From an uncultured Spirochaetota bacterium (lineage in GTDB: Bacteria > Spirochaetota > Spirochaetia > SZUA-6 > Fen-1364): a stretch of 64,000 nucleotides of DNA. The notes under the pieces are model-generated. The model was not told the DNA's origin, did not search any database, and saw only the letters and a list, made by a program, of their open reading frames with translations. The stretch is taken from positions 320,001 through 384,000 of the forward strand of contig CAVTHO010000006.1 of NCBI GenBank assembly GCA_963734545.1, read 5' to 3'. The stretch's first letter is position 1; each line of letters opens with the position of its first letter. A program made the position numbers and the translations under genes. Below, in pieces: positions 127-15,036 of the stretch.

Positions 127-3100
127 TCACGCTATTATCGCGTCCAAGACAAACGACTCTATTCTGAGGCCCGAAGATTCGCTTGTGATCGCCTCCGCCT
201 GCCCCTCGAGGTAGGATCTAGCCTTTTGAAGCGTCTTCCACTTAGGGCGATAATCCGGCGGAATCCCTGGAACATCGAAGTATGCAACAACGAAAATGCC
301 GTGGGTCAACCCATTGTCGCGAAGGTAGCGGTCGACAAGCTGGTCACGCATCGCGGTCCTACAAGTGCTGTTGTAAGAGTTCTTCACTTCCACAACGACG
401 CTAAGCATCGTTTGACGAGGTTGCTGTAACGGGACCTGGACCAGTATGTCAGTCTCCTGGCCGGGCTTTCCCCCAAGTTTCCGTGCCACCAGCCGTCTGC
501 GCAACTGCGTTTCTCGTGTGGCCACCAAGAAGTAGTCTTCCCCCTTCTTGCTGATTACGTGAACCAAGTTGTCCGAAACGGCCTCTTCATTTTTTGGCGT
601 TGGAGATTGGCCGCGAGGAAGGTTCCAGAGATTCGATGAGAGCGGAGGCGGTCCGCGCAGGGAGCTCTGATACTCGTCCAACGCATCGACTACTAGGTCG
701 AGAACGTCATCGTTGGATCTTAGCAGCTTTGCGCCGCTATCACGCAAGACCCAGACGACTTCCCGAAGATCAATCGGTGACCAACTTTGCATTCGTTCGT
801 TGCGTTCAGCCTCAGAACGCGCAAAGCGGAGCCATGGATATTCACGACCGTACTTGCTTTCGATATAACGGACGGCGTCCACGGCATCCGGTGTTCCCTT
901 GCCAGCTAGGAGGGAGAGAAGCCTGCTACGTAAAAAGACCGCCGAGTCCGCGGGACCAACAAAGTGTGCGCCTTCGTGCTGCGGATCGTCTCTCGGGGGG
1001 TAGGCCTGAAATAGCAAATCTAGCAACGTGCCTTGCTGTGGATCGCTCATTAGCGACAACCACGCGGTCTCGGTCCCTGGAATATGCGCCAAGCTGGAGA
1101 GGGTGGCCTTACGCACTCCCGCGCGCCGGCTTAGTACGAAGAATACTTTCTCGCAGCTACCGGGCGGGGAGCGACTTTAGGAGAGCCACCGCCGCGCGCA
1201 CGGCGGCATCCGAGCTCGCTGAATTCCGGGAAGAGACCGGCTGAAGCAAAGGGGCATGGCGGTTTCTGGAGCTCTCCTAAGCGACTCATCCATGACAAGG
1301 CTTAGGTTGTCGCCTCTTACCGCCTTGGCATGGATTAGTCGGCATATCGTGCTATTGAGGCGCTCGTCACTGACCTCTCCAAGTGCCTCAAAAATCGAGC
1401 CAAGGACACTGAAGCCTGACGGATCGCACGCAACTACCTTGATCCGCCGCCAAATTGCCTCAGGTAGGATGTCGTACGCAAGTCGCATGAGGAGTCTCTT
1501 GGGCCCCATCGGTTCCTGATCCAGCCGGTATCTGGTTTCTCTAACCACATACCAAATCCATATTTTCCAGATTCTGTTGCTGAGTGACTTCAAGAATGAA
1601 AGATCAACCTCGGCCAGGAGAAAGAAAGCCTCCATGACGCCGTCCATCGGTATGGTAGAGTACTCCTCTTCCTCTACGCGAGATGCCAAGTCGGTACAGT
1701 CCGTGACCAGTCGCTTCGCGGCCTCAACGATCTCCGCCCGGTCCTCTGGGCCCGCTTCTGCCCAACCCTCTGTTCGCACAATGAAGCGCGCAAATCTTTC
1801 TCGCCCGCGTTCGTCCATTGCTATGGCCCGGCGAAAGCCCGGCAAACCAATGAGGATCGTATTGGCATCTGGAAAGATAGCTGGTGACCACTTCCCTCCT
1901 AACGGCGTGTGTTTCCCCTTGCTCCTTTTCTCCCTCTCGCATCAGCCTGAGAAAGCGGCGTCCTGTCTCAGCTTCCTTTGAATCCAGTCGAACCGCAAGC
2001 GGAGGGAAATGGGACACAACAATAGGCTCGGCTCTCGATTGGTAGAGCAGATCAAAGCAGGCGTCATAGTTCTGCCATGGCAGCCAAGCGGCCATCTTGG
2101 CGAAGCTATCGGCCGCCGGCGAGCGACCTGAAATCGCCTTCTGCAGAAGCCATCCGAAATCCTGAACGTCGGCCAGGGCCGGCACCGACCTCAGGCCCTG
2201 GAATAGCTCCATCTCAGATGGGGCAAGCTTGGCAATGCATTCCAGCATAGAGTGCCGAAGTTGAGTATCCCTTTCGAATCTTGAAGCTATGGTCGCAGTA
2301 TCGTTCGTGGTCAGGAGTTCCTTACTCTTTCTATGAAGGAAGAAGGGTGCTGCGCCAACGCTTCCCGCTCGGATCACCCGGCTTGATAACTCCATGCAGA
2401 TCTCGTCTTGATCGGCCAAATCGAGAGCTCGGTAGGCGATAAGGCCAGCGATTTCCGATAATGGATCATCATGATGACGTCTCTTCCCCACTGAAGAAGC
2501 CCATTTGAGCACTTCGAGGTCAATTTGAGGCAGGGGGACAGCGCCCTGCGTCATCATCCACAAGAAATACTTGTAGGGCCCCATGTAGTTGCTGGCCTTT
2601 GGCGGCGAAAGTACTTGCAGGAGCTCTGAATCGCTCATATTCCAAGGCCAATTCAGTTGAAGGGCGAGGCCCTTCAGGTCGTCTTGCACGTCTTCTGGGA
2701 GGCCAACAGATAGAGGTTTGAGAGCACCTTTGCTCGATTCATTCCCAATCTCAGAAATCGCGTGGCCGCATTGAACGCGTGTTGCCAAGGGCAGGCTTTG
2801 GTCCAATGCCATCCGAGCCAAGTCCATGGCAAGTCCGACGAAACCGTTGCTTTCTGCCACCTTAATGGCAAAGGAGTGAACGTCCGCTGTATTCCCTGCT
2901 CTCTCAGCCAGGACTCGCCTTATATCGTCCTCAACTCCGTCATAGAAAAATCCTGATGTAAGGGCTTGATCTTGATGAACCTGAGCCTCCGTAAGACGCC
3001 CTGCCTTGAACATCTCAATTGTGGCTCTGAATGCGACTTTTCGAATTTCGTAGCTAGCAACTTCGCTACGGCCGATGAGCTCCGGGTCAGAAGTCGATAG

Positions 3101-4213
3101 CCAACCGGCAAACTCTGGATTGAAGCTCGCCGCCCACGCAGCGATCTCTTGTAAGGGACCAGCAATTCCGGATGCGTGCCCGCCGTCTCTGCTTAGCATC
3201 GAGCGAACCTGAAAGAGCGGCATTGTTGAGATTTTCTTTCCGGCAAGGAACTCCGCAATCTGCCGGTGTATGAAGCGGGCCCATTGGAACCCGGCACTAG
3301 TGAAGAGACCAGTTTCGCGAAGCGTCCGTAGCCCGTCGGCGTCGAATCCCAAACCCTCGAGCACTGCGATGTCGATTGAGCTTCCCTCAATCGTGCCTGA
3401 CCGAGACAAGCCTATCGACTCAGCCCCGGACAACAGCATCGCCGCGGCTACCTCCCCTGCCAGCCGTACGCAAGCGTCGACATTCGTCACCCGTGCTGTT
3501 CTACGCTCGTGTCGATCGAATGGGTCTTCGCACAGACGCCTAACCGCTCTGTCGAACAACTCGATTCGGCTACTGATTACCAGCCTGCCGGCCTTCCGAA
3601 ACTCGTCGATCAACATCCGCAACGTCATGGGGCGAGTGGCTAGTGAGAGAAGCTTCATTTCTCGGACAGAACGGGCAAACTCCTCAGCCTCAACGCCCTC
3701 TGCTGCCGCCGCTGTCCTGATGTCGTCTATGTCAAGCGGAAGAAGTTCAGCGACATGGACTTCGTCATGACCGTACACCTCGGACAGCGCCCTGACGAGG
3801 AAGCTCGGCCACACAGTGGATCTGCACGCGATTCGCAACGATGGCTTCTGTCCAAGAAACTTAGGGACCCAGTTGGAAAGCACATTCCCAGCCAGCGGAA
3901 CAGGCACCATTGCCTCGTCAAGGGCATCAAGCGCGAGCACGCCTTTACCGTCGGTCTGGGCAGCCAGGCTCTCGATTTCGGCCCTGAGGCCCGCCGCGTC
4001 GCTTACCAGTTCTCCAAGGCTCTTGCTACTGACAAGGCGACCTTGTTCGCGCTCAACCGCCGCAAGAACAGACAGTTCGTGCGTCTTTCCTAGACCAGCT
4101 GCGCCGAGCACGCACACGACCTTGAGCTCGGCCAAGTCGCGGGTGCGGACTTCTCTCTCGGAACCTTTTTCACGAATCGACCAGCGCCGATCTAGCGGCC
4201 AGTTGCTGCTCAA
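127..4213 (-). CDS. Large STAND/NACHT-type P-loop NTPase with helical repeats and C-terminal PD-(D/E)xK-like nuclease domain (split by frameshifts near 1845 and 1120-1250)
   Basis: Walker A LGAAGLGKT, Walker B LALDALDE, ACR and LATRPMTL motifs, FIHRQIAEFLAG winged-helix motif. C-terminal ETDILVQ...VVVEVK. TTG at 4213 follows GGAGGGG. ORFs 1724-4282, 1177-1845 and 127-1116 are collinear. Confidence 0.7.
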
Positions 4214-4636
4214 GCTACCCCTCCAGCACTTCTCTATAGCACATCCCTTCCTCAGAGTATTACGCGCACACGTCCCGTTCAAGCGTCCATGCGATCGTGC
4301 CTTTCAAGGCTGAAGCGACTGAGCGCTTCAGCCTTGAGATAACATAAAGGATTTGGAATCCATCTTGATCCTGAGGGGCTGAAGTATGGTGACCACTCAC
4401 CGTCGTCCCGCCTGATCCAGCTCTCCGCCAACACAACCAAGAAATGCGCAACCTCTTTCCCCAACGTGATGAGGCAGCTGAAAGAGGGCAGCCAGCGTGA
4501 CAATCTTCTGGGTCACCAAGTGTGAAGTATGACGAGTTGGACCGCGGCGCGTCCGTGCGCCGCGCCAAGATGCCCCGCCTACCATGGACGGTAGGCGGGG
4601 ACCGAGGAGGCTGAAGGCGACCGCATGAGGGAGGGG

Positions 4637-4764
4637 ATGCAGCCGACAGGGCTTCTTTCCAGCAAAGCCGTTCTCTACGCCAGAGTCTCCTCCAAGGAAC
4701 AGGAGCGGGACGGCTACTCCATCCCGGCCCAGTGCAAGCTACTTCGCTCCTACGCACGCCGCCA
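4637..4764 (+). pseudogene. Serine recombinase (resolvase catalytic domain) N-terminal fragment
   Basis: AVLYARVSSKEQERDGYSIPAQCKLLRSYA contains the YARVS catalytic-Ser motif; similarity stops abruptly at the repeat. Confidence 0.8.
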
Positions 4765-4968
4765 CGACTCCGGGTGGCCGCTTCCGGGCATCGGTCGCGG
4801 GCCGACCGCGTGCCGACGCGCCCCAACGTCCTGTTGGGGCGCTCATCTGAAGAGGGCCAGAGACACGCGGCAGGGACGCCGCGCGTCTCTGGCCGGGGGG
4901 GGTCATCAAGAAAACAAGCATACTTGGGTGGCAATCCTGTTTCTCTTGCACGATGCCAGTTTGCTGTC
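4765..4968 (+). repeat. Left copy of ~200-bp hairpin-rich inverted repeat flanking the type I R-M operon
   Basis: Near-identical to the reverse complement of 13921-14124 (e.g. ggtcatcaagaaaacaagcatacttgggtg, ctgtttctcttgcacgatgccagttt); three GC stem-loops plus an imperfect dyad. Confidence 0.92.
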
Positions 4969-4985
4969 AAACTATGGCTGACTAA

Positions 4986-7900
4986 TTATATCGGATCATC
5001 TGCCTCGGCGGATTCCGTGCTCAACACCTCCACAAACTCGGCGATGACGGATAGCTCGCCTTCCTCGATGCCCTTAAGCACAATTGGCGTATATGCAGGG
5101 TTGATGGGTAGTAAGCGGATTATGCTATGTTGCCAGGTACCGTCAGCGGAGGCGACCTTCTCGCTCTCGTATCGCTTGACGGTGAACTCGGCGTCGGTAT
5201 CAGGGTCGCGGATGTCTCGGTGTTGGACGAGCACCATGCGCCCTTGCCGGGTACCTTCGACGGGTCCAGCGAAAAGACACCAGGCGCCGTCGGGGATCAA
5301 CGGTTCCATGGACTTGCCGACTACCTGTGCAACGAACATTCCAGGACGCAGACGGTGATTCGCCTCGACAGCTACCCACATCCGATCGTCGTCCTCAACA
5401 TTTTGCGGATTGCTGAATGCACCAGCAGCAGCCTTGAGAGGAACGAGCGGCACGCATGTCACGTAGCGGTCATTCGCATGAGGTTGCACGATTCGGAGTT
5501 TAGGCCTTACTTCTTCTGCGCCAGCTCCTGCTTTCATAGAAGCACTCTTTCCATATGCGTCGCTACGAAGCCTCTTATATGCCTCCGACGCCATCCAAGC
5601 TATAACGACCTTCTGGAAGGGCAGATCGTTCATGTACCGAACGAAGATCTCCTCGTTCTGGTCCATGCGCTCGACGAACAGGTTCTCAAGCAGACTCTTG
5701 AACACCAGCTCGAACTTGTCGCCCGGGTTCACCGCGGCGGCCTGCTTTAAACCGTCGTCCGCCATGGCAGCCTCGACGATCTGATCGAAGAAGAGCTGGT
5801 CTGCCTGGTTGAAGTCAGTGCCGAAGCGCTCGTTTACTATGTCAATGAGCTGGGACAAAGGAATGGGCTGCGGGCGAGCGATGCCGGTGCCCACCTCTGT
5901 AGGACCGTCAAGAGGCTGTGCGTCGCCATCACGCAGACTGATCGAACCCTCGCTGATTTTCTGAAGCCTGTAGTACTCCAAGCGTACATCATCATCGAAC
6001 TGGTAGCCGGGCTCGGTGTGTCGTCTCGGCAGCTTCGAGGCCAGATGTCGAAGGAATACGTAAAGCCGCTCGAGGTCGGAGTCTTGGTAAGGGATTACCT
6101 GGCTGAGGAACCCGTACAGGTTGCGAAACCCCTGAACGTTGCCTCGCCAGAGTTCCGCTTCCTCCTCGTGGTCGGCCTGGAGCGCCGCGAATCGGGAGAC
6201 CGCCGGGTCCAAAGCGGCGTTCATCGCCTGATGGTCGATGGCGCTCTGCTTCGGCTTCGGCTTGAAATAGACGGCACAGAACAGCTCCACCTCTTTGGCC
6301 AGGTAGACCCCCGAAGAATCGAGCTCGCCCTTGAGTTGGTACAGGCGTGCGGGATCCACTTCTTCGCCCATCTCTGCGCCCTCGAAGTAGGTCTTGAACG
6401 CCTCACGGATCTCCTCACGGTCGTTCACGAAGTCGAGAACGAAGGTTTCTTCCTTGAGCGGATGGATGCGGTTCAAGCGCGAGAGCGTCTGTACCGCCTG
6501 GATGCCCGCGAGCCGCTTGTCGACGTACATGGTGTGCAGCAGCGGCTGGTCAAACCCGGTCTGGTATTTCTCCGCGACGAGGAGGACCTGGTACTCCTGC
6601 GTCGCGAACTTCTCGGGGAGCTCCTTCTCTCCGATCCCCTGGTTCATGCCCACTTCGGTGAAGGATACGTTTACGAGCTTGTCGTCTTGAACGATGCCGG
6701 AGAACGCCACCAACGTCTTTATTGGATACCCTTTCTCCTGAATGTACCTATCGAAGCTTTGCTTGTAGCGCACCGCCTCCAGGCGGGAACTTGTCACCAC
6801 CATCGCCTTGGCTCGGCCACCGATCTTGTGACGCGTGAAGGTATTGAAATGCTCGACCATCACCTCGGTCTTCTGCGCGATGTTGTACGGATGGAGCTTC
6901 ATGAAGCGTGCCAGCGCCTTTGCCGCCTTCTTGCGCTCGACGTTCGGGTCGTCCTCGCACGCCTTGAGCAGCTTGAAGTAGATGGCGTAGGTCGTGTAGT
7001 GCTTCAATACGTCGAGGATGAACTCCTCCTCGATTGCCTGCCGCATTGTGTAGCGGTGCGTCGGCTGTCCGTTCCTTCCGAATACGGCCAACGTCTTGTG
7101 CTTGGGTGTGGCGGTGAAAGCGAAGAAACTCAGGTTCGCCTGCCTGCCCCGTTTGGCCATACTGCGAAAAAGCTCCTCCATGTTTTCGACGCCTTCCTCG
7201 ACAGCACGGCGTTGGGCTTCATCACGCAGCGCCTCGCCGCCGAGCACTTCCTTGAGATCGGCAGCGGTCTCTCCGCTCTGCGAGCTGTGTGCTTCGTCGA
7301 TAATCACGGCGCAACGCCGCGTTGGAAGAACGCCCGAGCCGGTCGTCCCTCGCTCCTCGGCCATCTTGAGAAGCTGCCGGGACACAAATGGGAACTTCTG
7401 CAGTGTGGTGATGATTACCGGCACGGCTCTCTCGAGGGCCTCTGCCAGTTGTCTTGATCGCTCGTCGATCTTCTGAACCACACCCCGCTTGTGTTCGAAC
7501 TGGTAGATCGTATCCTGAAGCTGCTGGTCGAGCACAACCCGATCGGTCACTACAATCACACTGTCGAAGACCCGCTTGTTCTCCGCGTCGTGAAGCGACG
7601 CCAGCCGGTGCGCAAGCCAGGCGATGGTATTACTCTTTCCGCTGCCTGCGGAATGTTCGATAAGGTAGTTGTGCCCAATGCCCTCGCGTCTGGCCGCGTC
7701 CACCAGCGTCCGTACTGCCTGCAGCTGGTGGTAGCGGGGGAAGATCATGGTCTCCTTCTTTACCTTACGGCCCTCGTCGTCGCGCTTCTCCTCGATCTGG
7801 ATATGCACGAACCGCGCCAGCAGGTCGAGCAAGCTGTCGCGCTGTAGGACTTCCTCCCAAAGATAGGCGGTGCGATAGCTGCGGCCTGTAGGGTCCGGCG

Positions 7901-8566
7901 GGTTCCCTGCACCACCGTCGCAACCCTTATTGAATGGGAGGAAGTGGGTCGCCGAACCGGCCAGCCGTGTCGTCATCAACACCGCTTCGGTGTCGACGGC
8001 GAAATGTATGAGGGTTCGACGCTTGAACTCGAAGATCGGCTCACGCGGGTCGCGGTCCTGCTTATACTGCCGACGTGCGTCCTCTACAGTCTGGCCCGTG
8101 AGCGGGTTTTTCAGTTCTAGGTAACGATGGGGATTCCGTTAAGACTTAACATGACGTCGAGAGATTTCTCCGACCTTGCCGAGTAGTGGAGCTGCCGAGT
8201 CAAGCCCAAGCGGTTGGCCGCATAGCGGGCTTCCAACTCCAGGTTCAGCTCGTGCGCGGCCTTGAAGAACGCGACATGAAGCGTCCGTCCATAGCACTTG
8301 AACCCGTGACGAAGGGTCGCGATCGATCCATTGGCGTCCATCCATTTGCACAGGTCGATGAGGATCTGCTCCCCCGTCTTCTCGCCGTGCAGCGCCTCCA
8401 GCTTAGCCCACTCCTTAGGCTGGGTCTCACGGATGAAGCCGAGCACCGCCTCAGGGAAGATTGCGCGGCCGCGATCGAAGCCGTAGCGGGCTACATGTAA
8501 ATAGCCGTTCTGGAGGAGGTGCGCCTCGATGACGGTCTCGAAGGCCGCTTCGTTCGTTCGGTTCAT
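4986..8566 (-). CDS. hsdR: Type I restriction endonuclease subunit R with C-terminal LexA/S24 peptidase-like domain (frameshift near 8119)
   Basis: EAAFE start, HSAGSGKS Walker A, IIDEAHSSQ, FTATP, QTGFDQP, QTLSRLNR. C-terminal PLKAAAGAF...VGKSMEP...TVKRY. Confidence 0.92.
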
Positions 8567-9057
8567 TGCTTGGGTCCCAGTACGAAGCGCGCCCGCTCAT
8601 GTCGGAGCATTTCGTATGGCGTCATGCACTTGATTCCAAGACCGATGCAGGCGTCGGGAATCTTGATCTTGCGCGTTGAAGCGGAAGGGACTTCGTGCGT
8701 CACGACTGTATGCTTGCCCGCATGAGCCTGTGCCACCAGGTAGTAGTCGGCCACCTGAAGAAACGTACTGACGGCGGAAGGTTCGTAGCTCTGACCGGTC
8801 GCCCAGGTGCTCACCGCGGCCAGAGAAGGGAACGACGCCGCGTCGGGCCGGAGGAAGAAACCGGCGCCCCGTGCGTCGGCCCATCCCGACAGTTCGTCCG
8901 CCACGGCCTGCACTTCGTCGCCGACCTTCTCGACGCTGAACACCGTGCCGGCCGCGTTGTTCTCGATGAGCCACTCCCAGAACGCCGGGCAGAAGTCGAG
9001 CCCGTAGTGCAGGTTCTTGGCACGGATGAACACGTCGGCATCAAGCAAGTAGGCCAT
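8563..9057 (-). CDS. DUF4411 family PIN-like protein
   Basis: [18 protein letters not shown]...FWEWL...VADYYLVAQA...VVTHE...KIKIPDAC; ATG at 9057 overlaps the upstream stop. Confidence 0.85.
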   Translation of the reverse strand: MAYLLDADVFIRAKNLHYGLDFCPAFWEWLIENNAAGTVFSVEKVGDEVQAVADELSGWADARGAGFFLRPDAASFPSLAAVSTWATGQSYEPSAVSTFLQVADYYLVAQAHAGKHTVVTHEVPSASTRKIKIPDACIGLGIKCMTPYEMLRHERARFVLGPKQ

Positions 9058-10204
9058 CAGAACCCCAACCCCAGGCTGTGTCCTAGATCGCGAAACGTCG
9101 CCATCTTCTTGAAGCCCAGCAGCCGGAAAGCCTCCGTAAAGGACGAGCTGCCTTCCAACGTGCTGACCACCAGAGCGCGGGCGAAACGTTTGCTCGCCCT
9201 TGCGCCGAGCGTCAGGTAGAAGTCGCCGCCGCTTCCCTTCGGAAGCTTGCGCAGCCGATCGAGCTCCGCATCGTATGCCGCCCAATAGGCGTCGCGCGTG
9301 AGCCCGCCCGCATCGTGGATGCGGCGCAGGATGACCAGCGTGCTCACCTTGAAGCGCCGCGCCAGTCGGTCCATCTCGGTGCGCAACTCGGCGCGGCGGT
9401 CGTACTCGGCGCGGAGAACCTCCAGCGGCACGAGCAGCTCGGCGGCGACCTGGTTGCACCAGCGCTCCACCTCATGGTCGGGCACCGAGGCGGCCTGCGC
9501 ATCGGAGAGGGCGGACTGGCCGAGCCAGATATGCACAAGCTCATGTGCCAGCGTGAACATCTGCGCCGCCTTGGTGTCTGCGCCGTTGATGAACACGAGC
9601 GGCGCGAGGTCATCGGCCAGCGCGAATCCGCGGAACTCCTGCGGATCGAGCTTGCGCCGGTTGTTGCTGCCCACGACACCGCTCACCATCACGAGCACGC
9701 CCAGCGCGTCCGCCTGCTCGATGAAGTGGCGCAGCGCGTCGGTCCAGGTCGGCATTCGGCGGCGCTCCTCGACGTCGAAGCCCAGCGCGTGGCGGATCGC
9801 GCGCCGCCGTGCGCACCACGTCGTCCGTCACCCGCACGGAGCCGACGAACGGCAAGCGGCGCCTCTCCCATGGACCGCGCGAAGTCCCGGTACCACTCCT
9901 GGCGCTGCTGGCAGAGGTACAGAGTGTCGAGCAGGTCGGGGCTCGGGCGATCGATGCGCTCGGTTGCGACCGTGCGGAAATCCGGAATCGGTACACGCTC
10001 GACCGGCGGCTCTGGAAGGAAGAGGTAGCCAACCGGCGTGTGCGTGGCCTTGGCGAAACCCTCGAGCTGCTTGAGCGTCGGTTGTTTTTCGCCACGCTCC
10101 CAGGCCGGAAGCTGCGGAATGCGGTGCGCCAGCGCACCGAGTCCAAGCCCCGCACGCTCGCACGCCCAGCGCAGCATCTCCGGCCTGACTTCGACATACA
10201 TCAT
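9057..10204 (-). CDS. XRE HTH - ImmA/IrrE (Peptidase M78/DUF955) metallopeptidase (frameshifted near 9790-9850)
   Basis: N-terminal HTH ([10 protein letters not shown]...[13 protein letters not shown]); FTLAHELVH HExxH motif; [12 protein letters not shown]. Confidence 0.88.
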
Positions 10205-11490
10205 GCCATAGCCTCTTGGACGTCAATCTGGCCTGTCACAGCCGCGCCGATGAGGGCGGCGCGGCGTTCCTTGAGTAGGGCGATTGTGCGTTCAGTTGCG
10301 GCTTGCAGCGCGTCAATCTCGGCTGTCTCCGCGCGGATATAGGCTACGATAGTGCGCTGTTCATCGAGGGGTGGTACCGGGAAGAAAACTTCGAAGAAGC
10401 CCTCGGGATAAAGGCGTAGCCGCGACGACCATACACCCTTTGAGTACCGGGTCACTTCCTGCGCGAAAATGGGGATGCGAACCAATGCATCTACGAACTG
10501 GGGATCAAGTCGAGGGCCGGGCTGGTACACATTGTAGGCGGGGCTGACTATGCCACTCACAGGCGACACGCCCATGGCACCCATCCAAGCCCAAAGTGTA
10601 TTGATAACGAGGTCGTTCGCGTGGCAGATCTTGTACCCTTCTGTTGTCTTTGCTTCGAACATGTTGACATCTTTTTCAGCCCGGGTAGTCACTCCCGTAA
10701 GATGTGAAACGGTTAGTAGCTCCTCCTCTCCGGTCTCCGAGCGTACATCGCGCTCCCGAAAAAGCCACTGCGATCTCTCGACCTCCCAGTGGGTGGGAAT
10801 CTCGTAGAGCCATGGGATGCCAGAATCTCTCAGTGGGGCGCTGGAGTCGAGGCCGCGGGTGACGGCCCGGGTGATGAGCGCCCGACGTTTCTCGGCCAAC
10901 AGCCTGAGTACCCGCTCCTTTTCCGCTACTAGCGCATCCAGATGCGCCGTCTCGCGGTCGAGGTAGAGCGCGACAGCTCTTTGAGTTGGTGGAGGAGGAA
11001 GCAGCACCGCTTGCTCTGCTACCTGCTCCGCGTTCAGCGAAGGCACAGCACCCGGATTGGCAACTTGGCCAAAGTCTACAAGCGCCAAGTTATGGAGCAT
11101 GAACCGTTGGTCAGCACGACTGCTATCGAGAATAAGACCCATCATATTGTTGTCGATGCATGAAGCTTGTCCAAGAAATCTGAACCGGTTCAGCAACAGA
11201 GCTGCACCAACCTTCGCAAACACGATTGTGCCAGCGGGAAAGACGAAGGCTCCGAGTTGCGTAGCGGTATCACGCGATACGGAATGTTCACTGTATATTA
11301 GGCAGCCGTCTATGTTGGCTTCCGCAAGGTGCTTCACTTTAAAGAAAGGCAGTTCTTCGCCCTTCGTTCCTTGCTCGATATCTGGAAAGCCCGCGCCGCC
11401 TTTCAATCGTCCGAGATATCTGAGGCGAATTCGTGGCCACCGCGTTGCTCCAGGCGATACTTGGTCTGTAATCGGGCCAAGTTCACTCAC
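10201..11490 (-). CDS. hsdS: Type I R-M specificity subunit S
   Basis: Two variable TRDs separated by conserved PPPPTQRAVALYLDRET...LITRAVTRGLD and PVPPLDEQRTIV...ALIGAAVTGQI helices. Confidence 0.92.
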   Translation of the reverse strand: MSELGPITDQVSPGATRWPRIRLRYLGRLKGGAGFPDIEQGTKGEELPFFKVKHLAEANIDGCLIYSEHSVSRDTATQLGAFVFPAGTIVFAKVGAALLLNRFRFLGQASCIDNNMMGLILDSSRADQRFMLHNLALVDFGQVANPGAVPSLNAEQVAEQAVLLPPPPTQRAVALYLDRETAHLDALVAEKERVLRLLAEKRRALITRAVTRGLDSSAPLRDSGIPWLYEIPTHWEVERSQWLFRERDVRSETGEEELLTVSHLTGVTTRAEKDVNMFEAKTTEGYKICHANDLVINTLWAWMGAMGVSPVSGIVSPAYNVYQPGPRLDPQFVDALVRIPIFAQEVTRYSKGVWSSRLRLYPEGFFEVFFPVPPLDEQRTIVAYIRAETAEIDALQAATERTIALLKERRAALIGAAVTGQIDVQEAMA

Positions 11491-13476
11491 TCCGTCACCT
11501 CCCGCAGTAGCCGCATGATCTCTTCCTCCGCTATTTTCAGCTCCGCATCTATCTCCTCCAGCGGGCGCGGCGGGGTATACTTGTAGAAGTGACGGTTGAA
11601 GTTGATCTCGTAGCCTACTTTATCTTTGCTTCGATCCATCCAGGCATCGCGCACGTGCGGGAGCACCTCGCGCTCGAAGTAGGTGTCGATGTCGTCCTTC
11701 AGCGGTACGTTCTCGAAGTCGCGCAGGTCGGGGTCGGGCTCGTAACCGTCGTCGCGTCCACCCTTGGCAACCGGCTCAGCTTCGGGGTCCTTCTGCGTGA
11801 AGACGCTACGGAAGAGCTTCTGCTCGGTCGCCTTCCAGCGGGACTTGCGCTTGCTGAAGTAAGTCCTCAATGCGGCTCCACGCCGCGTTCCAGTCACATT
11901 GCGGCTCGCGGCCAAGTGCCTTATCGATGGCCTGAATGTCACCGAGCAGGTGCGGGTATGTGTCGAGGAAGCGAGTTTTGTCCTTGACGGTCATCTGATA
12001 GCACAGCCTCAGAGGCCGTTCGACTGTTACACGGGTGTAACCGAAGTCGGCATTGTCAAAGATCTTTGAGTTGTCGCCGTCGCAGAAACGGCCATAAAGC
12101 CTCACGATTTCCGCGATATCCTTGGAAGACATGTGGCGGCGCTTGTCGCCGAGGCTCCGCTTGGAATCCTCGCTGCCTCCTGGCTGCCACTTGGCGCGGG
12201 TATCGACGAGCAGAATCCTTCCCTTGCGGCGCTTTTCCTTTCGGTTGGTGACGATCCAGATGTATGTGCCGATGCCGGTATTATAGAACATCTGCTCCGG
12301 CAGGGCGATGATGGCTTCGAGCCAGTCGCTCTCTATGATCCACTTGCGGATGTCGCTTTCTCCCGAGCCCGCACCACCGGTGAAGAGGGGTGAGCCGCTG
12401 AAGACGATTGCAAGCCGCGAACCATACTTTTGCTGGTTGGGCAGGACTGGCTCGAATTTACTGATCATGTGCTGGAGGAAAAGGAGAGCACCGTCGTTGA
12501 CGCGTGGAAGGCCGGCGCCGAAGCGGCCGCCGAAGCCGAGCTTGTCGTGCTGCTGCTCGATCTCCTTCTGCTGCTTCTTCCAGTCCACGCCGAAGGGCGG
12601 GTTCGCGAGCAGGTAGTCGAAGGTATCACCTTCGAACTGGTCGTCAGTAAAGCTGTCGCCGAAACGCACGTTGTCGCCGCTGCCGTTGTGGTCCACCTGC
12701 TTCATGAGTATATCTGAGGCTGCGGTCGCAAACGCGCGCTTGTTGTAATCCTGGCCGTAGACGAAAAGTCTGGCTGCCGAGTGATGTTGGCGGAGGTAAT
12801 TCTGGGCTTCGGCGAGCATGCCACCCGTGCCGCAGGCTGGGTCTAGAAGCTTGCGCACGGTACCGGGCGTTGCGAGGAGCTTGTCGTCGTTAATGAACAG
12901 GATGTTCACCATCAACCGGATGACTTCGCGCGGCGTGAAGTGATCGCCGGCGGTCTCGTTGGCGAGTTCGTTGAAGCGCCTGATGAGGTTTTCGAAAATT
13001 AGCCCCATCTGCTCGTTCGGCACCGCGGCCGGATGCAAGTCGACGTCGCAGAACTTTGAAACCACTAGGTAGAGAATATCCGCCTCTCGCATCCTCTCAA
13101 TCTCGTTCTCGAACTCAAAATAGTCAAAAATAGTGCGGACATTGGCGGAGAAGCCCTTTATATAGCTGACCAAATGTCTCTCGATGTTGTCGGGGTCACC
13201 CTTCAGCTTCTCGAAGTCGAGCTGCGAGTGGTTATGTAAGCGCTGTCCGGCGGCCTTGTTCAGGAGCTTGTCGAGCGCATCGTTGTTGAGCCTGCCGCCC
13301 TTTCTCTTCTCGTACTCCGAGACGACCTTGGCTTTGGTCGGCGCGAGCACGCAGTCGAAGCGGCGAATCACGGTCATCGGGAGCATCACACGCTCGTATT
13401 GGGGCGGTCGATAGGGGCCGCGTAGCAGGTCGGCGATCTGCCAGATGAGGTTCGCGAAATAGTTGTGGTCAGGCAT
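11487..13476 (-). CDS. hsdM: Type I R-M m6A DNA methyltransferase subunit M (frameshift near 11850)
   Basis: ANLIWQIADLLRG, GDHFTPREVI, DPACGTGGML, NPPFG; C-terminal YFEREVLPHV...GYEINFNRHFY. Confidence 0.94.
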
Positions 13477-13495
13477 CAGTCACCCCAGCCTAACG

Positions 13496-13762
13496 TTATC
13501 TGATATGTGCCATTTCGCGCCCGGTCTGCGGCGTTCCTGGCAACCCTGCGCCTTCATTGCTGTTTTGCTTCCGGCGGTTGTTGTCATTCCGGCCAGCACT
13601 ACCTGTATGCACCCACTTGTCGACTTCTGATATTTTGAACTTCCACAGCCTACCCACTCGGTGAGCAGGCAATCGTTTGCTCTCGATCCACCGGTAGACA
13701 GAATCCTTCGCGACGCCAAGATGATTCGCGACTTCGTCAACCGAAACCCAAAACTCTTGCAT
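13496..13762 (-). CDS. Excisionase-like HTH_17 DNA-binding protein heading the R-M operon
   Basis: WVSVDEVANHLGVAKDSVYRWIESKRLPAHRVGRLWKFKISEVDKWV; RBS AAGGA. Confidence 0.85.
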   Translation of the reverse strand: MQEFWVSVDEVANHLGVAKDSVYRWIESKRLPAHRVGRLWKFKISEVDKWVHTGSAGRNDNNRRKQNSNEGAGLPGTPQTGREMAHIR

Positions 13763-13920
13763 TGTCTTTCCTTTAAAAGCGCTCTGTCCAGTAAGGCTTT
13801 CGGCTTAAGCCTATATTAGAAACTATCACGGTCTATGAGGATGCACAAGAGCAGATATAAGTGGGTAAGAATCGGCGTCATTAATCGCTTACATGAAAAT
13901 TGATTCGCACTTTCTTTAGC

Positions 13921-14124
13921 GACATAAAAACTGGCATCGTGCAAGAGAAACAGGATTGGCACCCAAGTATGCTTGTTTTCTTGATGACCCCCCCCGGGCC
14001 AGAGACTCGCGGCGTCCCTGCCGCGTGTCTCTGGCCCTCTTCAGAGGAGCGCCCCAACACGGACGTTGGGGCGCGTCGGCACGCGGTCGGCCCCGACCGA
14101 TCCTCGGAAGAGACCACCGGGTCG
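13921..14124 (-). repeat. Right copy of ~200-bp inverted repeat
   Basis: Reverse complement of 4765-4968 with few substitutions or indels. Confidence 0.92.
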
Positions 14125-14149
14125 CGGATCGGTCGAAGAGACGCCAGTC

Positions 14150-14600
14150 TCACGCACGGGCAAGTATCCCCCTCACCGTGTTGGCTTGCCAGACGCCGTT
14201 CTGCTTGGTCGGGATGAGCTTCAGGTTGAGATTGCCGGCGATCTCCCGCAGAGACAGCCCGCCGGCGCGGTACTGCCGCATCATTCGGATCGCCGCTTGC
14301 TCGGCGCTCGTTCTTCACGAGCTGGTGGTTCAGGTAGTCGAAGCCGAAGGGCAGTTGGCCGGTCCGCTTGCGCCCGTTCCCGTTCCGCGGGATGCCGAAT
14401 CGGTCCAGAGCCTCCAGCACCCCCGCGTGGCTCACGCCGACCAGCCGCTCGATCTCGCGGGCGGATAGGTGCTCGCTCGTGTAGAGCCGCTCCAAGGCAG
14501 GCCCTTGCTTCGCAAGGAGCAGACGGGCGGCAGCGGGATAAGGCCCTCAATCAGCGCGGGAGCGCGACCGTGCCCGTTTGCTTTCTGTTGGGCCGGGGGA
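14150..14600 (-). CDS. Small HTH + recombinase-domain protein (frameshifted; start uncertain)
   Basis: LERLYTSEHLSAREIERLVGVSHAGVL...GQLPFGFDY...EQAAIRMMRQYRAGGLSLREIAGNLNLKLIPTKQNGVWQANTV resembles the recombinase domain of large serine recombinases. Confidence 0.6.
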
Positions 14601-14625
14601 GACGAGACCGACTCGAACAGGCCTC

Positions 14626-14960
14626 TCAAACGGCGAGCAGAGCGGGGATTTCCTCGATCTTGTGCTCGTAGCAGTAGGTTCGAAGCTCGTCCAATAGGGG
14701 GAGCGACGGCGAACGGTACGCGAACTGGCTCTTTCAGGCAAACACCTGAGAGAGCCAGTTTCATTTCCGCGTCCATCAGAAGCAGCCTTGAGATCAGCCC
14801 GTGGATGCCCAGCTTGAGGGCTTCCCCGGTTTGATCGAGCACTTTCCGAAGGCTGTATCGGGTGAACTGATCCTCCCGGTGCTTCAGGATGGATTCGGCC
14901 TGACCAATGGCATCGAGGACGAACGTCTATTTCTCTTCGAGCCCCTTCTTGCGCTGCCCC
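14626..14960 (-). pseudogene. C-terminal remnant of a large serine recombinase-like gene
   Basis: Helical segment FVLDAIGQAESILK..., in-frame stop, ending LPLLDELRTYCYEHKIEEIPALLAV*, a tail style typical of LSRs. Confidence 0.4.
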
Positions 14961-15036
14961 GCAAACTTCGGACCAGGGAGTGCCATTGCCCGGATGCGGG
15001 TGCCGAGCACGTACAGTTCTCCGTGGATCTCACGGC

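Follow-up and report, generated by a model that had tools for sequence, protein, structure and literature searches.

A predicted S24 self-cleavage module fused to the C-terminus of a type I restriction subunit HsdR in an uncultured Spirochaetota bacterium

Introduction

To our knowledge, all characterised S24 self-cleaving regulators respond to RecA*, the filament of RecA on single-stranded DNA (ssDNA). The N-terminal fragment left by LexA cleavage ends in Val-Ala-Ala, like the ssrA tag, and CI and UmuD are not known to need an Ala at P2. Restriction enzymes, for their part, endanger the host chromosome when repair or recombination makes unmodified DNA. Proteolysis of HsdR, the nuclease subunit of type I systems, is a known route of restriction alleviation: Makovets and Murray are said to have described ClpXP degradation of HsdR as the alleviation of the EcoKI and EcoAI families, and the only well-studied safeguard that we know of is this ClpXP-dependent degradation, in a few E. 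coli systems. Here we analyse a window of 64,000 nucleotides (the whole stretch under study; GenBank assembly GCA_963734545.1, contig CAVTHO010000006.1, positions 320,001 to 384,000) in which an hsdR gene carries a LexA-like S24 domain as a C-terminal tail.

According to a passage in PMC10584840 (citing Neher 2003), self-cleavage of LexA uncovers latent ClpX-recognition motifs. In the full-text literature, drawn mostly from outside the subscription journals, we came across no description of an S24 domain joined to a restriction or defence enzyme, and passages of a preprint on Druantia III (PMC13192584) mention LexA solely as the target of an inhibitor. As far as we found, the combination of HsdR and S24 thus appears to be undescribed.

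Results

An In-Frame Fusion with an Optional Tail

A sequence-only reading of the window had proposed that an S24 tail follows the HsdR C-terminus and a linker in the same frame, with an Ala-Gly cleavage site, a catalytic Ser in VVGKSMEP and a catalytic Lys in TVKRY. This is borne out by translation of the open reading frame (ORF), a single stop-free frame of 998 residues, and by Pfam: SWI2_SNF2 (8.3e-28), ResIII (2.1e-12) and T1R_D3-like (3.3e-11) together span residues 82–516, and Peptidase_S24 (PF00717) matches residues 847–982 (E = 5.4e-8; 33.0 bits, above the gathering cut-off of 23.3), with 37.3 bits for the same domain in a scan of the whole genome. The cleavage site lies in PLVPLKAAAGAF at residues 845–856, VVGKSMEP is at 887–894 and TVKRY at 934–938; the codons of Ala853, Gly854, Ser891 and Lys936 were confirmed against the window DNA (table 1). 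The originally proposed span of 4986–5500 covers the domain, but the conserved module begins slightly earlier, at about 5507.

With respect to the identity of the enzyme, a superfamily 2 (SF2) motor and an HsdR-type domain 3 are present, and hsdM and hsdS lie in the same operon. The NCBIfam hsdR profile (TIGR00348) is not reached by the 998-residue ORF (165.9 bits against a cut-off of 284.55; profile positions 215–670 matched), a shortfall that fits the missing N-terminus of the truncated ORF described below; PADLOC assigns REase_I to the intact relative P0004.

Searching with residues 800–998 against proteins of 548–1747 residues gave 1630 matches at E ≤ 0.001, and most of the 120 matches listed are HsdR of 1166–1209 residues, from many assemblies, which carry HSDR_N, the motor and PF00717 on one chain. 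The 120 closest relatives of the HsdR body (query residues 1–800) are 85–100% identical to it: 85 of them bear the tail, in the same ORF and with a length of 1166–1209 residues when complete, and 35 have no tail (34 of 1006–1040 residues and one 829-residue fragment). Since the same tail stands in one ORF in 85 of the 120 closest relatives, from other assemblies, HsdR-S24 is confirmed as a genuine in-frame fusion rather than an indel artefact, the objection that the sequence-only reading had itself raised.

The tail is not required for the enzyme and is an optional part of it. Median body identity to the HsdR of the window is 85.9% for tail-bearing and tail-less relatives alike, and both kinds belong to one tight family with the same operon type. 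The tail-less relatives end 10–20 residues past ...AYRRLR, with a length close to that of the predicted cleavage product.

Fold, Cleavage Site and Conserved Residues of the Module

A profile built from 32 modules and run against the solved structures recovered 23 sequences at E ≤ 1, all of them LexA, UmuD or lambda CI (best 8gms, E = 1.4e-3). In its alignment to 8gms and 1jhe, GKSM coincides with the Ser motif of LexA and TVKRY with the Lys motif, and the aligned LexA Ser is the position mutated in the "LexA S119A" structure entries. The AlphaFold2 (AF2) model of residues 819–998 is all-beta (pLDDT, the predicted local distance difference test, 84.7; pTM, the predicted template modelling score, 0.80), with a low-confidence stretch at model residues 35–44 that starts exactly at the predicted scissile bond. 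Foldseek returned 34 matches at E ≤ 0.001, all LexA, CI or UmuD, with signal peptidases far behind; the best match was 1jhe_A (E = 3.8e-5, template modelling (TM) score on the target 0.70), the top matches include 1jhe, 3jsp, 8gmu and 1umu, and TM scores on the target go up to 0.70–0.73. A homodimer prediction for two copies of the module scored 0.01 (mark 0.42), which weighs neither way.

Conservation was read from 228 complete modules, comprising that of the window and 227 from two similarity searches with the window sequence, a set that is not independent of the query. The dyad is nearly invariant (Ser891 and Lys936, 227 of 228 each), as is the site: Ala852 at P2 and Ala853 at P1 are kept in 224 modules each, Gly854 at P1' in 223 and Phe856 in 222, and P3 (residue 851) is Ala in 187, Val in 24 and Ile in 10 (221 jointly). 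The resulting P3–P1 pattern, Ala/Val/Ile-Ala-Ala, we take to resemble the site in LexA. Profile, dyad, an Ala-Gly site N-terminal of the core (by sequence) and the beta-fold place the module in family S24, and the tail is an S24 fold with all residues needed for the predicted self-cleavage.

Four further residues are conserved within the module family, the first three of them nearly invariant: Trp869 (227 of 228), Cys902 (226), His952 (220) and Cys843 (189), with codons within 5127–5456.

Table 1. Positions of the HsdR-S24 fusion, its parts and the other genes of the operon in the window
Feature	Position	Strand	Basis
Main hsdR ORF as assembled (998 residues): SF2 motor, helical C-terminal region, linker, S24 tail	4986..7982	-	Translation, Pfam
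Conserved S24 module, residues 826-988, PKLRIV...RYVTCVPL to ...AEFVEVL	5019..5507	-	Column conservation (228 modules), AF2, Foldseek
Predicted general base Lys936 (TVKRY)	5175..5177	-	Conservation; aligns with LexA position 156 column
Predicted nucleophile Ser891 (GKSMEP)	5310..5312	-	Conservation; aligns with LexA G-x-S-M Ser
Predicted scissile bond Ala853 (5424-5426) / Gly854 (5421-5423), between KAAA and GAF	5421..5426	-	Sequence, conservation
Variable linker, residues ~801-825, from HsdR end (...AYKRLR) to module	5508..5582	-	Ends of tail-less relatives; identity drop in mosaic pairs
Site of 1-base deletion (at about 8119-8121) relative to relatives, in nuclease D...E-x-K motif	8117..8123	-	Alignment to relatives; outside any repeat tract
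Nuclease N-terminal part of hsdR, separate 149-residue ORF ending ...SLNGIPIVT and stop	8117..8566	-	Aligns with residues 5-153 of relative P0009; weak HSDR_N match
DUF4411 (PIN-like) gene, hsdS-hsdR interval	8563..9063	-	PF14367, E 2.9e-50
ImmA/IrrE M78 peptidase gene, CapP/RmrA-like	9057..9755	-	PF06114 E 4.5e-18; PADLOC capP 5.5e-13, RmrA 1.8e-11
hsdS	10201..11490	-	Methylase_S
hsdM	11806..13476	-	N6_Mtase E 4.5e-54, HsdM_N E 5.2e-24

Divergence and Exchange of the Tail

The module diverges faster than the enzyme that carries it. Across the 7503 pairs of 123 tail-bearing HsdR, the bodies have a median identity of 88.0% and the modules one of 71.8%, and in only 11 pairs is the module the more conserved part; the two identities are correlated (Spearman 0.42, the pairs not being independent). 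Nine pairs combine bodies at least 94% identical with modules at most 65% identical. Between P0108 and P0006, 44–50 residues per 50 are identical over 1000 residues and 26–30 per 50 from the linker on; this drop is a clean breakpoint, and in some pairs the tail has clearly been swapped at the junction. The tail in the window is a minority variant whose nearest neighbour from the genomes is a Myxococcota HsdR (76% identity, branch support 99). Resolution is poor in the tree of 81 modules, where 6 of the 78 inner branches are starred, and switches of partner are not reliably countable on it; the partner labels do cluster, with 18 changes against 29.2 in shuffles.

Distribution and Partner Enzymes

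With the module as query, phmmer found 1824 matches at E ≤ 0.001 among 1.84 billion representative sequences, 167 of them at E ≤ 1e-30; the matched proteins range from about 110 to 1969 residues. To survey the partners, Pfam was run on those 76 of the 150 matches listed that have at least 280 residues, and PADLOC on 12 examples. As a C-terminal tail, the module is found on Type ISP/IIG enzymes, MmeI-like and DrmMI-like proteins, two kinds of HsdR, DrmC-like PLD nucleases, LlaJI and McrBC; on the nuclease end of a Type III Res subunit, a Type IV enzyme, giant DruE-like helicases with DEAD and MZB domains and an HNH-methyltransferase protein; and on Schlafen AlbA_2 proteins and Schlafen group-3 helicases (DUF2075; Nhi/AbiO-like). 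Some database entries are named simply "SOS-response transcriptional repressor LexA."

A relative of the module is encoded at 216 loci in species-representative genomes, and the best 80 were classified by BLAST to the partner examples. Fifty carry it on this HsdR family, 17 on a Type ISP enzyme, four on a DruE-like protein and one each on a PLD protein and a ResIII helicase-like protein; one is unclassified, and six have fewer than 60 residues in frame upstream of the module. In 78 of these 80 loci the module ends at most 27 residues from the stop codon. The six short loci (L030, L045, L054, L085, L096 and L069, of which L030 at least lies away from a contig end) could represent free-standing modules, or else fusions whose frame is broken in long-read bins.

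The source phyla include Myxococcota, Acidobacteriota, Planctomycetota, Nitrospirota, Pseudomonadota, Actinomycetota, Chloroflexota, Spirochaetota and Verrucomicrobiota, among others, and the records are nearly all metagenome-assembled. It should be noted that the module is rare: it is present in 9 of 61 genomes of relatives (the window's own included), in none of 20 of the same genus, and in 8 of 401 genomes of a phylum sample. Some genomes hold two or three copies on different enzymes; that of the window has one, and also encodes recA, clpX and a canonical lexA. No module match was found among phage records. Among plasmid records there was one, on the 1.83-Mb replicon NZ_CP040452.1 of the cultured strain Halomonas sp. 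PA16-9 (locus L108, 6977–9447), where an ORF for a Schlafen group-3 helicase (686 residues), with PIN_8 genes upstream, is followed in another frame and with an overlap of 70 bases by an S24 ORF (159 residues); this arrangement represents a split form or else a fusion with a frameshift.

A Frame Break in the Assembled hsdR

The HsdR of the window does not have its N-terminal PD-(D/E)xK nuclease on the same polypeptide as assembled, and this domain is intact in the relatives of 1166–1209 residues. Against the intact relative P0009 (1193 residues), a small upstream ORF corresponds to residues 5–153 and the main frame starts from residue 150; past the IPIVT stop the sequence resumes as LELKNPLTGQ in the frame of the main ORF, so that one base is missing and nothing else. 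Behind 8119, a related contig from public run X3, about 81% identical, carries one additional base. None of the public sequencing runs contains the window stretch (best share of words 0.20), and four of them yielded contigs of relatives only.

The source assembly consists of 10 contigs and is 89% complete. Outside the window, recA is in two frames and clpX in five pieces, which we read as four frame changes (G000:C7:621968-622679 and G000:C3:495089-496296); rpoB, gyrB and dnaK are whole, leaving two of five examined housekeeping genes frame-broken. The assembly thus contains local indel errors, and its frameshifts should not be taken for pseudogenes without reads. Given the breaks in recA and clpX, the frameshift in hsdR may be an assembly error, an explanation no less likely than a dead gene.

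Neighboring Genes

All genes of the operon are on the minus strand, in the order hsdM, hsdS, ImmA/IrrE peptidase, DUF4411 gene and, last, hsdR. The ImmA/IrrE M78 peptidase and PIN-like DUF4411 genes between hsdS and hsdR (8563–9755) look like a protease–toxin pair of the Rosmer/CapP type. Relatives of the ImmA gene occur in 10 of the best 80 related loci, directly upstream of hsdR-S24 in eight; the DUF4411 partner occurs in just two, indicating that the second gene varies. Between hsdS and the ImmA gene, the ORF at 9610–10197 (minus strand) has no Pfam or NCBIfam match and may encode a repressor-like partner of the peptidase; a 74-residue counterpart, 59% identical, lies just upstream of the ImmA gene in locus L047.

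Directly 3' of hsdR, at 1724–4282 and 4260–4970 (minus strand), lie an 852-residue protein and a 236-residue ORF without a family match. The larger resembles in part the NACHT antiphage proteins EruA (E = 2e-41) and HyoA (9e-35), far below their cut-offs, and this stretch has the appearance of a defence island; both genes are absent from the best 80 related loci. An ORF on the plus strand (4625–4981) has a sub-threshold match over 30 residues to the resolvase N-terminal domain (E = 0.0019), which is probably spurious. A scan of window positions 4300–5100 for terminators and promoters found none. A 17-bp imperfect GC-rich inverted repeat at about 4855–4894, some 90 bp 3' of the hsdR stop and lacking a T tract, was not flagged by the terminator scan.

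Discussion

The explanation we favour, with a probability of roughly one half, is that a portable C-terminal S24 module of about 160 residues, attached to HsdR by a variable linker, would cleave itself when stimulated by RecA*, leading to degradation of the subunit and shutting restriction off. Upon DNA damage, RecA–ssDNA filaments would stimulate self-cleavage between KAAA and GAF, as in LexA, leaving an HsdR that ends in ...LKAAA-COOH; this new C-terminus would act like the latent ClpX signal of cut LexA, the nuclease subunit would be degraded, and restriction would be off while the chromosome carries unmodified repair tracts, amounting to a built-in restriction alleviation. The predicted cleavage product ends about 30 residues beyond the stop of natural tail-less HsdR. 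Cleavage alone would leave a normal-looking enzyme, and hence either ...L-K-A-A-A marks it for degradation or the uncut tail inhibits it. Degradation is favoured by the precedent of LexA cleavage, by the Ala-Ala at P2–P1 in 224 of 228 modules and by HsdR proteolysis being an established alleviation route. Restriction alleviation or a damage-triggered defence through RecA*-stimulated cleavage, as the sequence-only reading suggested, would fit all the findings, and it is made plausible by how little the catalytic and site residues vary. That reading had covered neither the upstream frameshift of this copy nor the presence of the tail on many other enzymes.

Several points weigh against this explanation. 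Cleavage of the module, its dependence on RecA and the degradation that follows are predicted steps, and because cut HsdR would be much like the natural tail-less forms, inactivation would hang wholly on the presumed degron. In sequence the module stands far from LexA (phmmer with one sequence against the solved structures gave nothing relevant), so its RecA-binding surface may differ from that of LexA. The tail also occurs on modification-dependent enzymes (Type IV, McrBC), where alleviation at unmodified sites makes no sense and a broader rationale or an activation model may apply. No SOS box of three common types was found in window positions 4000–15000, which cover the operon and the stretch upstream of hsdM, though the LexA motif of the host may differ. 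Finally, the hsdR of the window is frame-broken as assembled.

More tentatively, and as something we consider possible rather than probable, the tail may be a general portable fuse that wires unrelated DNA-targeting immune enzymes to the RecA* signal at the protein level, disarming or arming their nucleases. Such a fuse would take in Type I, ISP/IIG, III and IV restriction enzymes, Druantia DruE, DISARM DrmC/DrmMI and Schlafen-type helicases, and fast divergence and cassette exchange would then stem from an arms race in which phages trigger or block the fuse, or from adaptation to new hosts after transfer.

A switch in the opposite direction we hold to be doubtful: the uncut tail would keep the enzyme inactive until RecA* on phage or damaged DNA brings about cleavage and releases an active nuclease, so that damage or infection would trigger the defence. 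It would draw on the same intact catalytic apparatus, the product would resemble the natural, presumably active, tail-less HsdR, and the tail also sits on effectors outside restriction-modification (DruE-like, Schlafen/AlbA and Nhi/AbiO-like helicases), where triggered activation is common. However, keeping a type I system off until there is RecA* would sacrifice first-line restriction of incoming DNA, HsdR with and without the tail belong to one tight family and have the same operon type, and autoinhibition of the uncut enzyme is a supposition.

Somewhat more doubtful again is self-cleavage in response to something other than RecA*, such as a phage protein, the stalled or collided state of the enzyme itself, or slow constitutive maturation. 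The remoteness from LexA (profile E = 1.4e-3, with the single-sequence search empty) and the near-invariant Trp869, Cys902 and His952 specific to this family would suit such a trigger, and fast divergence with swapping of cassettes is expected in conflict with phage factors; against it, the site and dyad are LexA-like, and the S24 self-cleaving regulators that we know to be characterised all answer to RecA*.

We give very little credence to a purely non-catalytic role of the tail, in dimerisation or as a scaffold, with protease motifs that are relics. The S24 C-terminal domains of LexA, CI and UmuD do dimerise, and Type I and ISP enzymes work in pairs, but relics would decay, and here Ser and Lys are retained in 227 and Ala-Ala-Gly in 223–224 of 228 modules within the fastest-diverging part of the protein; a relic or mere scaffold is unlikely, given such strong constraint on dyad and site in an otherwise fast-diverging domain. 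An artefact that joined hsdR to a separate S24 gene has a negligible chance, since despite the indel errors of this assembly, its hsdR included, the idea is already contradicted by the tail within the same ORF in 85 of the 120 closest HsdR, from other assemblies, and by the same fusion at 50 of 80 genome loci.

If the favoured explanation of cleavage followed by degradation is true, a self-cleaving damage sensor within the nuclease subunit couples immunity to genome integrity directly, without transcription. The module recurs on a dozen enzyme classes across many phyla, and natural tail-less alleles of the same enzyme provide built-in controls; it would, if this holds, also be a ready-made portable tag for damage-responsive degradation or activation.

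Among known systems, the M78 switches ImmA/IrrE, CapP and RmrA, one of which lies in this very operon, also answer to DNA damage or ssDNA by proteolysis and control defence or mobile-element genes, but as metallopeptidases they cleave a partner repressor in trans, and their fold is unrelated to S24. The ClpXP-dependent alleviation of E. coli shares with our model the control of a type I system through proteolysis of its R subunit after DNA damage, which protects a chromosome with unmodified sites; the protease there acts in trans on translocating HsdR and no S24 domain is involved, whereas here a self-cleaving sensor would sit inside HsdR, with a degron step that we infer. To the latent ClpX degron of LexA the likeness lies in a cut between ...AA and G that would leave an N-terminal fragment ending in Ala-Ala, and the difference in that recognition of ...LKAAA-COOH by ClpX or another protease in these hosts is presumed by analogy. 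LexA, lambda CI and UmuD themselves (MEROPS S24, PF00717) share with the module its fold, a Ser-Lys dyad placed in the same motifs, an Ala-Gly site that lies on a strand-loop shortly before the core, and the order of an N-terminal cargo and a C-terminal protease. The module differs from them in a core some 30–40 residues longer, in its remote sequence with family-specific Trp869, Cys902 and His952, and in that its RecA* dependence is a prediction. Its departure from the described S24 proteins known to us is the cargo: a restriction motor-nuclease of about 1000 residues in place of a DNA-binding repressor domain or a polymerase subunit.

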